Below are positions 633 to 48,770 of a DNA stretch of 64,000 nucleotides, one piece after another. Below the pieces are notes generated by a model. That model was not told the DNA's origin, ran no database searches, and worked only from the letters and a program-made list of their open reading frames with translations. A program made the position numbers and the translations under genes. How positions within the stretch are numbered: the stretch's first letter is position 1; each line of letters opens with the position of its first letter. The DNA is taken from the NCBI GenBank assembly GCA_963708135.1, contig OY970192.1, positions 4,672,001-4,736,000 on the forward strand, given 5' to 3'. The stretch is from an uncultured Gemmatimonadales bacterium (GTDB lineage Bacteria > Gemmatimonadota > Gemmatimonadetes > Longimicrobiales > RSA9).

Positions 633-1636
633 GAGCGGCTGCGGGTGAGGAGCACGACGAAGACCGGGACGCCCACGATCGCGGTGACCACGCCGACCGG
701 GATCTCGGCGGGCGCGGCAATGGTGCGGGCGAGGGTGTCGGCGAGGAGCAGGAAGGCGGCGCCGGCCAGGAACGAGGCGGGCAGCAGCAGGCGGTGGTCG
801 CTTCCCCAGACGAGCCGCAGCGCGTGCGGGATGATGAGGCCGACGAAGCCGATGACGCCGGCCACGGCGACGCCCGCCGCCACCATGAGCGAGGCGACGA
901 GGTACGCGCCGGTCTTCACGCGCTCGACCCGCGTCCCGAGGTAGAGCGCCGTGTCCTCGCCGAGCGCGAGCAGGTTGAGCGGCCGGGCCAGGGCGATGAG
1001 CACGGCCGCGGCAGGGAGCAGGTAGGCGGTGAGCAGCCCGACGGCGGGCCAGGTCGCGGCGGAGAGGCTGCCCATCATCCAGAAGACGGCCGAGCGGAAG
1101 CTCTCGACGTCGGCCAGGGTGAGCAGGAGCAGGATGATGGCGTTGAAGAACGCGCCCACGACCACGCCCGCCAGCAGCAGCACCCGCGTGTCGAGCGCGC
1201 GGCCGACGCCGGCGGCGATGCGGAAAACGAGGAGCACGGCGCCCACCGCGCCCGCGAGCGCGGCGAGTGGAACGCTCCAAGGCGCGCGCACCCCCAGCCC
1301 CAGGACGACGGCGCCCACGGCGCCCACGGCCGCGCCGCCGGAGACGCCCAGGATGTAGGGCTCGGCGAGCGGGTTCCTGAGCAGCGCCTGGAAGACGGCG
1401 CCGCTCAGGGCGAGGCCTCCGCCCACCAGCGACGCCAGTGCGGCGCGCGGCAGCCGGAGCTCGAGCACGATCGTGCGCGCCTCGGCCGTGCCGCCGCCCG
1501 CCAGCGCGGCGAGCACGGCACGGAGCGGCAGGCGCGCGGCCCCGAGCGCGGTCGCGGCGATGAGCGCTGCGCCCAGAATGGCGGCAAGGATCGCGAAGCG
1601 GGCGAGCCCGGCGGGGCCGCGCGCCCTGGCCCTCAT
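629..1636 (-). CDS. btuC: FecCD/BtuC-family ABC permease
   Basis: LRLPRA, LLRNPLAEPYILGVSGGA, GVIGFVGLIIPH and EIPVGVVT motifs. Probable start ATG 1636 overlaps the binding-protein stop. Confidence 0.9.
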   Translation of the reverse strand: MRARARGPAGLARFAILAAILGAALIAATALGAARLPLRAVLAALAGGGTAEARTIVLELRLPRAALASLVGGGLALSGAVFQALLRNPLAEPYILGVSGGAAVGAVGAVVLGLGVRAPWSVPLAALAGAVGAVLLVFRIAAGVGRALDTRVLLLAGVVVGAFFNAIILLLLTLADVESFRSAVFWMMGSLSAATWPAVGLLTAYLLPAAAVLIALARPLNLLALGEDTALYLGTRVERVKTGAYLVASLMVAAGVAVAGVIGFVGLIIPHALRLVWGSDHRLLLPASFLAGAAFLLLADTLARTIAAPAEIPVGVVTAIVGVPVFVVLLTRSRS

Positions 1637-45525: not shown

Positions 45526-45978
45526 TCACGGCAGCTCGCGGCGGATCTCCTCGGCGATCTCAGGCGTGATCGGCTGGCGGCCGGCAAAGCCGCCATCGAT
45601 CTCGTGCCAGAAGGCGACGCGCGACTCACCCAGCTTCCAGCACAGCAGGACCGGGCGGCCGCGGTAGAGGCTGTGGAAGTCGATCAGCCCTTCCTGGAAG
45701 TCCTTGACCACGCAACCCACCTGGTCGAGCTCCCGGAGATAGCCGTGCAGCCGCTCGGCGTAGGCGTCCACGGCGTCGCTCAGCGACTGCAGCTTCGAGC
45801 CGAGCGCCTCCCCCGTCGAGGCATCGAGCTGCCGGTAGAGCGAGCGCTTGCGCTGGAACTCCGGGTAGCCGTCCACGATGTCGCGCACGATGCGCGCGAC
45901 CAGCGGCAGCGTCCGGCTCGCCTCCTCGACCGTGAAGAAGCGCGGCTGGCGCGCGCCGCCCGAAGCCGGCTCGCTCAT
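45526..45978 (-). CDS. DUF2203 family protein
   Basis: FFTVEEA..LPLV, VKD..GLIDF, LLCWKLGE..FWH..GGFAGRQPI. Confidence 0.88.
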   Translation of the reverse strand: MSEPASGGARQPRFFTVEEASRTLPLVARIVRDIVDGYPEFQRKRSLYRQLDASTGEALGSKLQSLSDAVDAYAERLHGYLRELDQVGCVVKDFQEGLIDFHSLYRGRPVLLCWKLGESRVAFWHEIDGGFAGRQPITPEIAEEIRRELP

Positions 45979-46634
45979 GCGTCGCCCTCGGCGAGCACCC
46001 ACTCGCAGCCGGCCGCGCCCCGGACCGCGCAGGCGCTGTGCAGCACCCGGGCGCGCGTGCCGGTGAACGCCGCCACCAGCTCCTCGAGTGCGCCGCCGTA
46101 CAGCACGCAGGCAGTGCCGCTCGGGTCGAGCGTCGTAGCCAGGGTTCCGCTCGCCTCCACGTGGAGTGGCCGCCCCGAGACCCGCACGGTCCCGCCGCCG
46201 GCGAGCCCGCGCAGCAGGCGGCCGGCGGAGCGGCGGATGTAGGCGAAGGAGAGCGCGCGCGGGAGCGAGGGCAGGACGCGCGCGAGGAAGCGGGGCGCCC
46301 GCGCCACGTGCTCGCGCGCAACGCGGTGGCCGGCGTCGCGCAGGATCGCCTCGGCGTCCGGCCGCCGGAGCACGAGCTGGATGAGGTTGGCCGCCTCGGC
46401 GCTCGGCACCCGCCGTCCGCGGCGGGCCGCGCGCTCGTAGTTGTGGATCTGCGACTCGACCACCCCGCTCAGCCCGAGGCGGCGGGGCAGACTGGCCGAC
46501 AGGTCCTCGTCCTCCAGGATCTCGCCCGGGCGGTCGTGTGCCCGCACCGAGAGGAGCAGGGACAGCGGGAGGAACGGCGTGACCGGCTCATCGGGGAGCG
46601 ATCCGCCTGTGACATCGTCGGTTGCCGCGCTCAC
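45975..46634 (-). CDS. V4R-like small-molecule-binding domain protein
   Basis: C-terminal ACVLYGGALEEL...VLHSACAVRGAAGCEW, the three-Cys V4R pattern. Coupled to DUF2203. Confidence 0.7.
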   Translation of the reverse strand: MSAATDDVTGGSLPDEPVTPFLPLSLLLSVRAHDRPGEILEDEDLSASLPRRLGLSGVVESQIHNYERAARRGRRVPSAEAANLIQLVLRRPDAEAILRDAGHRVAREHVARAPRFLARVLPSLPRALSFAYIRRSAGRLLRGLAGGGTVRVSGRPLHVEASGTLATTLDPSGTACVLYGGALEELVAAFTGTRARVLHSACAVRGAAGCEWVLAEGDA

Positions 46635-46697
46635 TGGTGCACCTTACCCTCAGCGGGGCGTAGATTCGCGCCGCTCAAGAGAAGTGCTTCGGCGTCC

Positions 46698-46856
46698 GGG
46701 TAGGGAGAGCCAGCGTCGCTTGCCGCTCGACGGCCCGCATGAGACCCGCTCCCCTGCCCGGCGTGGAAGGCCCCAACCGACCACAGGGTGTAGCGCCACG
46801 GCACCTGAAGCCGAGAGCGCCTTTCAGTGAGCGATCGGTGAGACCTTCCAACGCCG
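46698..46856 (+). ncRNA. Putative IS110 bridge RNA (target- and donor-binding loops)
   Basis: Two consecutive stem-loops. The first holds GCCGCTC and GCATGAG, matching the flanks. The second holds CACAGGGTGT, matching the element right end. Confidence 0.75.
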
Positions 46857-46891
46857 GAGCGAGGGAGTGAATCTCTGCTCGGAGGTGAGGC

Positions 46892-48139
46892 GTGGAAGGA
46901 CTGGATCCAAGCTACCTCGTCGGAATTGACTGGGCCAGCGACAAGCATGACGTCTGTGTGCTCGATCTGAGCGGCGCCCTCGTTGACGCGTTCACCATCC
47001 CTCACACGGCCGGTGGGCTGAGTGAGCTGATCCGGCGCCTGCGTCGCGTCAGCTCTCCGGCGCAGCTGCCCATCGCCATCGAGCGGCCGTCCGGACTTCT
47101 GGTGGATACGTTGGTCGAGGCCGGCTTCCCGGTCGTTCCGATCCACCCGAACGCCCTCAAGGCCACCCGGCCCCGCTACGCCGCGGCTCCGGGGAAGAGC
47201 GATCCCGGTGATGCCTACATCCTCGCCGACGTCCTGCGTACCGATGGGCATCGATTCCGGCCGCTCCGGGTCCCCTCCGATCGCACCAAGGCGCTTCGCG
47301 CCGCCGTTCGCACCCGCGATGACCTGGTCGCGACCCGCGTCCAGCTCGCCAATCAGCTCCGCAGCCTGCTCGACAGCTTCTGGGCCGGCGCTGCCGCCAT
47401 TTTCGCCGATGTCGATAGCCCGATCGCCCTCGATTTCCTGGACGCCTACCCCACCCCGGAGAGCGCCGCCCGCCTCGGGCCCAAGCGCCTCGAACGATTC
47501 CTCAAGCGCACTGCCTACTGCGGCCGCCGGCCGGTCGATCAGCTCCTCGAGCGGCTCCGCTCCGCCCCCGCAGGGCAGGCCGCCGAGCTCGAGAGCGAGA
47601 CCAAAGGTCAGCTCGTCCGTTCCCTGGTCGCCGTCCTCCGCCCTCTCGTGGCTCAGATCCGCGAGCTCGACGGGCTCATCGCCGCTCACCTCGCGCAGCA
47701 TCCCGACGGTGAGATCCTGAAGTCCTTCCCCCGCACCGGCACCATCAATGCCGCCCAGATTCTCGCCGAGCTCGGCGACGACCGGCTCCGCTTCGCCACC
47801 GACGCCCAGCTCGCCGCCGAAGCCGGCGTCGCCCCCGTTACGCACAGCTCCGGCAAGCATCGCGGCGTCGCCTGCCGCTTCGCCTGCAACAAGCGCCTGC
47901 GACAAGCCCTCACCACCTGGGCGGACAACTCCCGCCATGCCCACCCCTGGGCCGCCGCCGTCTACAAGTGCGCCCGTGCCCGCGGCTGCGATCACCCGCA
48001 CGCAATCCGAATCCTCGCCCGAGCCTGGGTCCGCGTGCTGTGGCGCTGCTGGCACAATCGGTCCACCTACGACCCCTCCCGACATGGACGGGCTATCCCC
48101 TTCTTCACCCCCGCGGAACCCACCGCGGCGGCTGCTTGA
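46892..48139 (+). CDS. IS110-family DEDD recombinase/transposase
   Basis: VGIDWASDKHD, IAIE, GKSDPGDA (DEDD RuvC-like), AGVAPVTHSSGK (Tnp serine motif), NKRLR, LARAW. GGAGGTGAGG RBS. Confidence 0.95.
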   Translation: MEGLDPSYLVGIDWASDKHDVCVLDLSGALVDAFTIPHTAGGLSELIRRLRRVSSPAQLPIAIERPSGLLVDTLVEAGFPVVPIHPNALKATRPRYAAAPGKSDPGDAYILADVLRTDGHRFRPLRVPSDRTKALRAAVRTRDDLVATRVQLANQLRSLLDSFWAGAAAIFADVDSPIALDFLDAYPTPESAARLGPKRLERFLKRTAYCGRRPVDQLLERLRSAPAGQAAELESETKGQLVRSLVAVLRPLVAQIRELDGLIAAHLAQHPDGEILKSFPRTGTINAAQILAELGDDRLRFATDAQLAAEAGVAPVTHSSGKHRGVACRFACNKRLRQALTTWADNSRHAHPWAAAVYKCARARGCDHPHAIRILARAWVRVLWRCWHNRSTYDPSRHGRAIPFFTPAEPTAAAA

Positions 48140-48323
48140 ACACAGGGGGGTTGACACAGGGTGTCTCATGCCGCCTCGTGAAGGAGCCACCGGTGCGCGG
48201 CTCAATCTTGCGGCGCGGCGGCCCGACTGGCAACGGGGCAGGGAGGCGGCACCCGGCCCGCTTCCTGCATTGTCAGGGGCCCGCTGACAGGAACGGCACC
48301 GCGCCCAGTCGGAGGACCCCCCA

Positions 48324-48770
48324 ATGGTGGATGAAACCTGCATCTTCTGCCGCATCATCGGCGGCGCGGAGATGGTGAGCATCGTGCACGAGGACAGCGA
48401 CGTGATCGCCTTCATGGACATCCAGCCCGCGAGCGTCGGCCACACCCTCGTGGTCACGAAGGACCACTACCCGACCCTCTTCGAGCTGCCGGACGACCTG
48501 GCCGCCCACTGCATCTCCACCGCCAAGTGGATCGGCGAGGCGATCAAGCGCGCCACCGGCGCCGACGCCGTCAACCTCTTCAGCGCCAACGGCCGCGCCG
48601 GCGGCCAGGACGTGCTCCACTTCCATCTGCACCTCATTCCCGTCCGTGAAGGCGACGACTTCGCCCTCCAGCTCCCGCTCGCCGACGCGCGCATCCCGTC
48701 GCGCTCCGAGCTCGACGTGACCGCCGCCCGCATCGGCCGGGCCGTCCAGGACCAGAGCGCGAAGGTCTGA
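48324..48770 (+). CDS. HIT-family nucleotide hydrolase
   Basis: CIFCRII, FMDIQP..GHTLVV, GQDVLHFHLHLIP. Confidence 0.93.
   Translation: MVDETCIFCRIIGGAEMVSIVHEDSDVIAFMDIQPASVGHTLVVTKDHYPTLFELPDDLAAHCISTAKWIGEAIKRATGADAVNLFSANGRAGGQDVLHFHLHLIPVREGDDFALQLPLADARIPSRSELDVTAARIGRAVQDQSAKV

Follow-up and report, generated by a model that had tools for sequence, protein, structure and literature searches.

An IS110-group insertion sequence with a predicted IS621-like bridge RNA, and a phased antisense frame, in a Gemmatimonadales genome

The IS110-family element IS621 of Escherichia coli is described as having a CT core at each of its two ends, the left one long and the right one short, an RNA with a 5' stem-loop and two internal-loop modules, the 3' side being complementary to the target, a 9-nt left target guide (seven nucleotides plus CT), handshake dinucleotides 3' of the right target and right donor guides, a lower stem with a bulged invariant A, a right end that carries a -35-like TTGACA, and a DEDD-plus-serine recombinase (PMC11208160, PMC11208158). 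The same features are found in an element at positions 46630-48166 of the window analysed here, which is a 64,000-nt stretch of contig OY970192.1 (positions 4,672,001 to 4,736,000, forward strand; assembly GCA_963708135.1) from an uncultured Gemmatimonadales bacterium. The preferred reading, held with a probability of about 0.9, is that this element is one of four near-identical IS110-group copies, each with an IS621-like bridge RNA encoded in its left end.

The element also departs from IS621 in several respects. Its protein is too distant for a single-sequence structure search, and only a family profile reaches IS621. The natural right target guide is 7 nt long, whereas IS621 pairs four nucleotides, extendable to seven, and the left donor guide matches donor positions -9 to -2 (-10 to -1 in the window copy) and excludes the core, which in the IS621 papers is stated to be part of all four guide pairings (PMC11208160, PMC11208158). 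The exclusion of the core is the only difference of plan that was tested. IS621 prefers REP sequences, whereas the natural targets of the present element are start-codon regions.

The IS1111 group, with its seekRNA, shares the recombinase family and the RNA-guided mechanism, but the IS621 papers place its RNA in a long right end and describe long subterminal inverted repeats. The present element has a left end of 262 nt and a right end of 27 nt, its RNA lies upstream of the gene, and a short core is present at both junctions, all as expected for the IS110 group as opposed to the IS1111 group. Thousands of IS110 bridge RNAs have already been predicted (PMC11208160, PMC11208158), and as a bridge-RNA element this is an ordinary IS110-group member with a canonical bridge RNA that adds little new. 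Its value lies in a covariation-backed map of four guides and both handshakes for a high-GC subfamily distant from IS621, and the most interesting lead is a phased antisense frame (vide infra).

Element boundaries, copies and recombinase

The following features define the element and its gene.

46630..48166, + strand: IS110-group insertion sequence, both CT copies included (four-copy comparison and breaks in the contigs of run X1)
46630..46631, + strand: left CT core dinucleotide, the only sequence common to all targets and donors
46892..48139, + strand: IS110 recombinase gene, 415 amino acids, GTG start with GGAGG 6 nt upstream (Pfam, NCBIfam and profile matches)
48155..48166, + strand: left donor CACAGGGTGT plus the right CT core copy; the donor is identical to 46782-91, and copy identity stops here

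The genome carrying the element is a single 5.45-Mb contig of 72% G+C and contains four full copies, which differ from one another at 0-2 positions over 1540 nt. In a side-by-side alignment, identity begins at 46630 and ends at the right CT (48165-66), and the flanks are mutually unrelated across all four copies. The element size, counted from CT to CT, is 1535 bp. The two positions that vary between copies, 46969 and 48085, are both third codon positions, and the changes are read as synonymous.

The four occupied sites read GCCGCG-CT-CATGCC, AGCTCG-CT-CATGCG, TGCGCG-CT-CATGGC and ATCGTG-CT-CATGGG. CT is present at both ends of all four copies and also in the empty site, which for the window copy is reconstructed as ...GCCGCG-CT-CATGCC...; the corresponding predicted circle junction is ...CACAGGGTGT-CT-CACTGGTG.... 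The core is taken to be CT only, and the following CA is excluded, because relatives show CTGC, CTCC or CTGG after the right end; CA 3' of CT is part of the right target and of the right donor. The non-coding left end extends from 46630 to 46891 and the right end from 48140 to 48166. No long subterminal inverted repeats were noted in the element, in which no dedicated inverted-repeat search was run.

The boundaries are also visible in sequencing data. Run X1, a DNA run that contains 90% of sampled words and may be the source sample of the genome, yields contigs that break at 46628 and 48170. In a 917-nt contig from this run, window sequence from 46628 on follows a fifth left flank, whose final 15 nt have one exact occurrence in the genome; there the surrounding sequence agrees with 30 nt of the contig flank. 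That fifth site is empty in the assembly (L096 at about 1497-1505, minus strand; near 1016300 in G000:C1), reading ...GGCGCCTCACCG-CT-CATGGCCGCAGG... without the element, or ...CTCACCG-CT-CATGGCC... about the core, and it is occupied, at least at the left junction, in X1. This occupied/empty pair confirms CT as the left junction, and it shows the insertion to be polymorphic in that population. Because the fifth insertion is polymorphic with a matching empty site, mobility appears to have been recent, and the element is probably still mobile. A search for an orthologous empty site, with the flanking 219-aa open reading frame (ORF) as query, matched 26 of 31 genomes (a count that includes the unpublished G015, G016 and G020, on which no claim rests); none was readable, because the matching relatives belong to other genera, at no more than 60% identity and with unaligned N-termini.

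The recombinase matches Pfam families PF01548 (DEDD_Tnp_IS110; E = 2.4e-37, residues 10-163) and PF02371 (Transposase_20; E = 2e-17, residues 274-358), as well as NCBIfam NF033542, 'IS110 family RNA-guided transposase', at 204.7 bits against a cut-off of 140. A single-sequence search of solved structures gave no match at E 0.001, the only one being a chance match to SusD at E 1.4. A profile of 33 relatives, however, matches IS621 (8wt6, E 1.6e-17) and ISCro4 (9t56, E 2.5e-16); the ISCro4/IS622 bridge recombinases (10.1101/2025.05.14.653916) are members of the same family that are no closer than IS621. Residues D13, E64, D104, D107 and S320 (the serine of SG) are invariant among the 33 aligned relatives, loci L039, L042, L069 and L078 having been removed from the candidates for the protein alignment. 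These residues align with the IS621 motifs GIDtA, IEa, KtDtvDA and eSG, which hold D11, E60, D102, D105 and S241 (numbering from PMC11208158). By its sequence, the protein is that of an intact IS110-family member, with an N-terminal RuvC-like DEDD domain and a C-terminal Tnp domain carrying the predicted catalytic serine.

Fold and guides of the predicted left-end RNA

A scan for relatives, limited to one genome per species, found 141 stretches that encode a relative, of which 80 loci with 54-89% identity were kept. Their hosts include Gemmatimonadales, Longimicrobiales, Alphaproteobacteria, Acidobacteriota, Rokubacteria, Actinomycetota and others, and their left ends can be aligned over the whole length. 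The fold was analysed in 67 distinct segments equivalent to 46692-46853, with the following structural elements recognised in the window copy.

46649..46681, + strand: 5' stem-loop, with arms 46652-56/46671-75 and 46658-60/46667-69 and loop TAGATT (from single-sequence folds)
46696..46761, + strand: target-binding loop module, with stem 46696-705/46752-61, bulged invariant A46706 and stem 46707-10/46748-51
46722..46734, + strand: upper hairpin of the target loop, GCCG/CGGC with loop CTCGA and arms 46722-25/46731-34
46765..46849, + strand: donor-binding loop module, with stems 46765-69/46845-49, 46777-80/46835-38 and 46793-96/46817-20

Unaided, RNAalifold returns two stem-loops with large internal loops, with double changes in 25 of 30 pairs across the 67 sequences. 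In a 31-pair model, 94.8% of cells are paired, compared with 39.9-46.1% when the partners are slid by 1-3 columns, and double (compensatory) changes are found in 25 of the 31 pairs; none of 500 shuffles reaches the observed values. In the target module, helices 1 and 2 are 84.5% and 93.9% paired, with double changes in 13 of 14 pairs, and the upper hairpin is 99.3% paired, with 28 double changes at pair 35:50 and 14 at pair 34:51. Helices 4-6 of the donor module are 93.4, 99.3 and 100% paired, and pairs 100:183 and 102:181 have 33 double changes each. The 5' stem-loop contains the heptamer GCCGCTC (46670-76), and a hairpin is legible by eye at the same place in L007, L010 and L011, which are close relatives. 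A single-sequence fold of 46634-46900, which gave a different long-range structure (z -2.06), was set aside for the consensus fold. The left end is thus predicted to encode a two-stem-loop bridge RNA whose fold covaries.

The single-stranded segments of this RNA were compared with the DNA adjacent to each element, with shuffled pairings as the control. Flanks and ends that could not be mapped were dropped before counting (for example, the left sides of L012, L015, L026, L041, L052, L055, L057 and L076). Four guides and two dinucleotides were located.

46712..46720, + strand: left target guide (LTG) AGCGTCGCT, 7 nt plus CT, the same sequence as the target top strand
46737..46743, + strand: right target guide (RTG) GCATGAG, complementary to CT+CATGC
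46744..46745, + strand: target-loop handshake dinucleotide AC, complementary to the last two bases of the donor, GT (48163-64)
46782..46791, + strand: left donor guide (LDG) CACAGGGTGT, identical to right-end positions -10 to -1, core excluded
46825..46831, + strand: right donor guide (RDG) CAGTGAG, complementary to CT+CACTG at the left end (46630-36)
46832..46833, + strand: donor-loop handshake dinucleotide CG, complementary to the CG preceding CT in targets

The LTG lies on the 5' side of the internal loop, as in IS621, and would pair with the target's bottom strand. Across 54 insertions, 46713-20 covaries with left-flank positions -6 to -1 at Z = 2.9, 2.6, 4.7, 4.5, 6.1 and 7.3, respectively. 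The CT of the guide is 100% conserved, and the match to the left target falls from 98% at -1 to 44% at -6. The base after this CT (46721) is T or C in all relatives, and at the first position of the right target (RT+1) 98% have C; by a U-G or C-G pair here the left guide could reach one step beyond the core.

For the RTG, complementarity at RT+1 to RT+5 is 98, 96, 94, 87 and 78% over 55 insertions (Z 6.3-10.4), with no signal past RT+5 in the same set. Relatives with the divergent RTGs CTAGCAG, GGGGGAG, CAACCAG and GGAGGAG adjoin CTGCTAG, CTCCCCC, CTGGTTG and CTCCTCC, respectively. For the target-loop dinucleotide, 98% of 55 cases are complementary at right-end position -1 and 96% at position -2.

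On the donor side, LDG positions 46783-90 each agree with their counterpart in donor -9 to -2 in 31-33 of 33 distinct pairs, and where they change the donor changes with them (GGGTG/GGAAG/GGATG...). The edges vary, 46791 agreeing with donor -1 in 20 of the 33 pairs and 46782 with donor -10 in 19. The RDG is complementary at all seven positions in 24-25 of 25 distinct pairs, again with matched changes (CAATGAG/CTCATTG, TGATGAG/CTCATCA, CAGTAAT/ATTACTG). In the donor-loop dinucleotide, 46832 complements target -1 in 24 of 25 distinct pairs and 46833 complements target -2 in 13 of 25, and the target ends in CG at three of the four genomic copies. The handshake role of both dinucleotides is taken from the IS621 structure paper (PMC11208158). 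CT is included in the LTG, RTG and RDG, and across the family the LDG excludes the core, so the element provides a natural example of a left donor guide that does not cover it.

An earlier note on this DNA, made by reading the sequence, had read the element as an IS110 one whose left end encodes a bispecific bridge RNA, and the Pfam and NF033542 matches and the covarying fold bear this out. All of the strings that it quoted are present where it placed them: GCCGCTC at 46670-76 and 46722-28, GCATGAG at 46737-43, TGAG at 46828-31, CACAGGGTGT at 46782-91 and 48155-64, TTGACA at 48151-56 and CTCA at 46674-77 and 48165-68. Its two stem-loops lie roughly where it drew them and are now set at 46696-46761 and 46765-46849. 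The RTG assignment agrees with the flank covariation over 55 insertions, and the LDG assignment with donor identity over 33 distinct pairs, and its observation of a donor guide that ends short of the core holds across the family. For the RDG, the TGAG that it recognised is correct, but it saw only these four nucleotides of a 7-nt guide.

Some variation among the relatives concerns the core itself. In four loci from metagenome-assembled genomes of Actinomycetota (L078, L080, L081 and L082), the core-reading guides say AT (LTG ..CCAT, RTG ..GAT, RDG ..AAT); the left junction is AT but the right junction is GT, and the two ends of these elements seem to carry different cores. In addition, L072 is flanked on its left by the 5' half of another copy's bridge-RNA target loop (...GCCGCTCGACGGCCCG), and the flank of L028 includes a 20-nt fragment of a left end; these flanks are nested or tandem partial copies.

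Proposed excision, target choice and alternative readings

[quoted passage not shown] In the donor loop, the LDG CACAGGGTGT would match the right end and the RDG (CAGTG+AG) would complement CT+CACTG at the left end. The AC and CG that lie 3' of the RTG and RDG, complementary to the last two bases of the opposite partner (donor GT, target CG), would act as handshake guides. The element would leave the host DNA as a circle, the junction of which (...TTGACACAGGGTGT-CT-CACTGGTGCACCTT...) would probably complete the promoter of the RNA, and the DEDD/Ser recombinase would swap strands at CT between this junction and a target like AGCGTCG-CT-CATGC.

The candidate promoter elements are as follows.

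48151..48156, + strand: TTGACA, candidate -35 of a promoter that would be complete only in the circle (TTGACA in 39 of 51 and TGGACA in 9 of 51 distinct junctions)
46640..46645, + strand: CACCTT, putative weak -10-like hexamer, 18 nt after TTGACA across the joined ends

The TTGACA had also been pointed out in the earlier note, and its retention in the junctions of relatives supports that choice. At the spacing of the second hexamer, CACCTT is found in 22 of the 51 distinct junctions, and TACCTT, TACCCT or TACCTC in 12. The IS621 papers describe a junction promoter (PMC11208158), and a junction promoter with a weak -10 may likewise be present in the circular form of this element. TAGATT (46661-66) was considered as a -10 and ruled out; it is the loop of the 5' hairpin and would lie 39 nt from TTGACA in the circle.

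Several observations weigh against the preferred reading. A consensus scan of the linear sequence finds no promoters and no terminators, and a scan of 46300-48500 with Rfam, at E up to 1, finds no match in a library (Rfam 15) that may or may not hold a bridge-RNA model. The single-sequence minimum-energy fold of the left end differs from the consensus fold, with a z-score of only -2.06. The LDG has no core pairing, unlike the IS621 description, and the RNA reads AG where the donor has CT. The sole evidence from an RNA library is a 176-nt contig from a soil metatranscriptome (X20), over 46716-46889; it comes from a relative about 96% alike, not from the window strain, with three other letters and four gaps, and covers the bridge-RNA part only. 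This contig is a weak hint of expression, as its ends and strand are unreadable and it may be DNA. The runs with small shares, X2-X21, gave only short or relative-derived pieces, and no claim about habitat or expression is drawn from them.

The behaviour at target sites also counts against a strict guide-directed reading. The predicted target AGCGTCG-CT-CATGC has no perfect site in the genome. At one mismatch there are 2 sites and at two mismatches 81, and none of these 83 better-matching sites is among the four occupied ones, which match only 4, 3, 2 and 1 of the seven non-core LTG positions. Right-target matches at the same four sites are 5, 5, 4 and 4 of 5. In 53 insertions of relatives, the mean match is 3.8 of 7 for the left target and 5.4 of 7 for the right target. 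The working motif looks like CG-CT-CATG(C), with a loose reading of the left target; CGCTCATG occurs 566 times in the genome. A 2026 preprint, which reports 'half-match' recombination by IS621, points the same way. This combination of loose left-target and tight right-target matching bears on the off-target rules of bridge recombinases. The intact recombinase proposed in the earlier note stands, but the 'distinct specificity' that it attached to the element was overstated: L013, L017, L030 and L035 carry an identical LTG and RTG, so the specificity is not unique to the window copy.

These target-site observations, together with the preprint, would fit copies that multiplied recently but are now inert, or a target choice in which the recombinase and the CG-CT-CATG motif weigh most and the distal LTG counts for little. 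This explanation is unlikely. The LTG positions that correspond to -3 to -6 still covary with the flanks (Z 2.6-4.7), the copies differ only by their 0-2 third-position changes, read as synonymous, the fifth site is polymorphic, and the catalytic residues are intact.

A second possibility is that the left-end structure is a 5' leader that regulates translation or stability of the recombinase and is not a guide RNA. The structure does lie directly upstream of the recombinase start, the RNA-library contig extends to 46889, and no Rfam family matches. However, a leader would need no four segments that track the element's own ends and the host flanks, as is seen in 25-55 independent cases, and this explanation is regarded as very improbable.

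There remains the particular arrangement drawn in the earlier note, in which the element starts at 46678, after CTCA at 46674-77, the target is GCCGCTCATGC, and GCCGCTC at 46722-28 is an LTG held in a hairpin loop; the heptamer does occur twice, and CGTCG (46714-18) could pair with CGACG (46728-32) in the window sequence, but this arrangement is scarcely credible given that 46630-46677 is common to all four copies while the flanks differ, that 7 nt of the RDG match at CT+CACTG (46630-36) but only 4 nt at the end proposed there, that 46722-25/46731-34 covaries as a stem (28 plus 14 double changes), that the diagonal of flank covariation falls on 46713-20 and not on 46722-28, and that the empty site of the fifth insertion reads CG-CT-CATGG. 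The left end had been set 44 bases too far in, the true CTCA being at 46630-33. The empty site CGCGCCG-CTCA-TGCC and the circle junction ...GTGT-CTCA-AGAG that followed from it are wrong, since 46634-46677 lies within the element, and the left half of GCCGCTCATGC differs at the other copies, an outcome that had been named beforehand as one that would tell against the model. The supposed LTG is the covarying upper hairpin, the true LTG being AGCGTCGCT at 46712-20, and the supposed left flank (46670-76) belongs to the 5' stem-loop as its 3' arm. The identity of the two heptamers joins two structural stems and is read as a coincidence, and the guide that seemed oddly placed in a CGTCG/CGACG hairpin loop needs no explanation once the LTG is correctly assigned.

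A phased antisense frame and apparent start-codon targeting

A further property of the element was noticed on the opposite strand.

46631..48169, - strand: antisense open frame of 512 codons, from a host ATG (reverse complement of 48167-69) to a TGA (reverse complement of 46631-33)

This frame lies within a 608-aa ORF. Its TGA overlaps a GTG (reverse complement of 46632-34) that re-opens the host ORF at 45975-46634, and AAGGTG is found 5 nt upstream of this GTG. On the reverse strand, the right target's CAT reads ATG, and at three of the four copies the ATG opens an ORF that runs away from the element, with lengths of 219, 337 and more than 500 codons; at the fourth copy the ORF has only 20 codons.

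Phasing of this kind is found throughout the relatives. Of 56 distinct elements, 50 have a size of 2 mod 3, and the same holds for 24 of the 30 distinct sizes. Left ends come in 22 distinct lengths (250-364 nt), of which 19 are 1 mod 3, and right ends in 16 (25-226 nt), of which 15 are. In 45 of the 56 elements the antisense frame stays open up to the final one or two codons, and the other two antisense frames hold 4-20 stops there; stops are present in 54 of 57 left ends when these are read in the sense frame that is in phase with the recombinase. Two loci whose ends look mis-called (L044 and L083) were excluded from the end-length and sense-frame counts and kept in the open-frame count. An in-phase start codon is present at 43 of 51 insertion sites (ATG in 32, TTG in 6 and GTG in 5), and the guide seems tuned to gene starts.

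It is proposed here, tentatively and with the odds slightly against it, that bridge-RNA targeting and translation are built to work together in a widespread IS110 subfamily. In most cases the RTG would be set to CAT/CAC, a start codon in reverse, so that the element would insert after the fifth base of a host gene. The ribosome-binding site and ATG of the host could drive an antisense frame of about 500 codons that crosses the right end, the recombinase gene and the DNA encoding the bridge RNA. The TGA, which the left end supplies, would overlap the rebuilt (A/G)TG, preceded by AAGGTG, and the host gene could re-initiate by stop-start coupling. If so, this would be a low-harm insertion strategy, and the element would possibly sense host expression through antisense translation across its recombinase gene.

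Several results limit the force of this proposal. Among the high-GC3 ORFs of the genome with at least 450 codons, the antisense frame aligned with the codons is open by chance in 64% of 415-codon stretches; the coding part alone therefore proves little, and the weight lies on the non-coding ends. A motif like Shine-Dalgarno is found 4-12 nt upstream at only 15 of 43 sites, compared with 12% of random 20-mers, and an in-phase host ORF of at least 100 codons is found at 26 of 38 sites, compared with 19 of 38 in a control frame. A Pfam search with the antisense product gave no match.

The nearest described parallel to such a frame is in Mycobacterium avium subsp. paratuberculosis, in the element IS900. 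IS900 inserts between the ribosome-binding site and the start codon. It is likewise of the IS110 family and has an ORF, hed, that lies opposite the transposase and spans the whole element (PMC8141618); hed is described there as having neither a start codon nor a ribosome-binding site of its own and is proposed to use host signals (PMC8141618, citing Doran et al. 1997). An opposite-strand ORF across the whole element without start signals of its own is what is found here as well, the likeness being one of description. The present subfamily differs in that its point of insertion comes five bases into the host ORF (ATGAG|), and in that it rebuilds an (A/G)TG that overlaps the antisense TGA. No paper connecting hed to bridge-RNA guides was found in the literature searched, and the phased antisense frame would link the old observation on IS900 to the programming of the guides.

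The element is bracketed by divergent ORFs of 148 aa (48324-48770, + strand) and 219 aa (45975-46634, - strand). The 219-aa ORF has lost its own ATG through the insertion and has retained the GTG supplied by the element.

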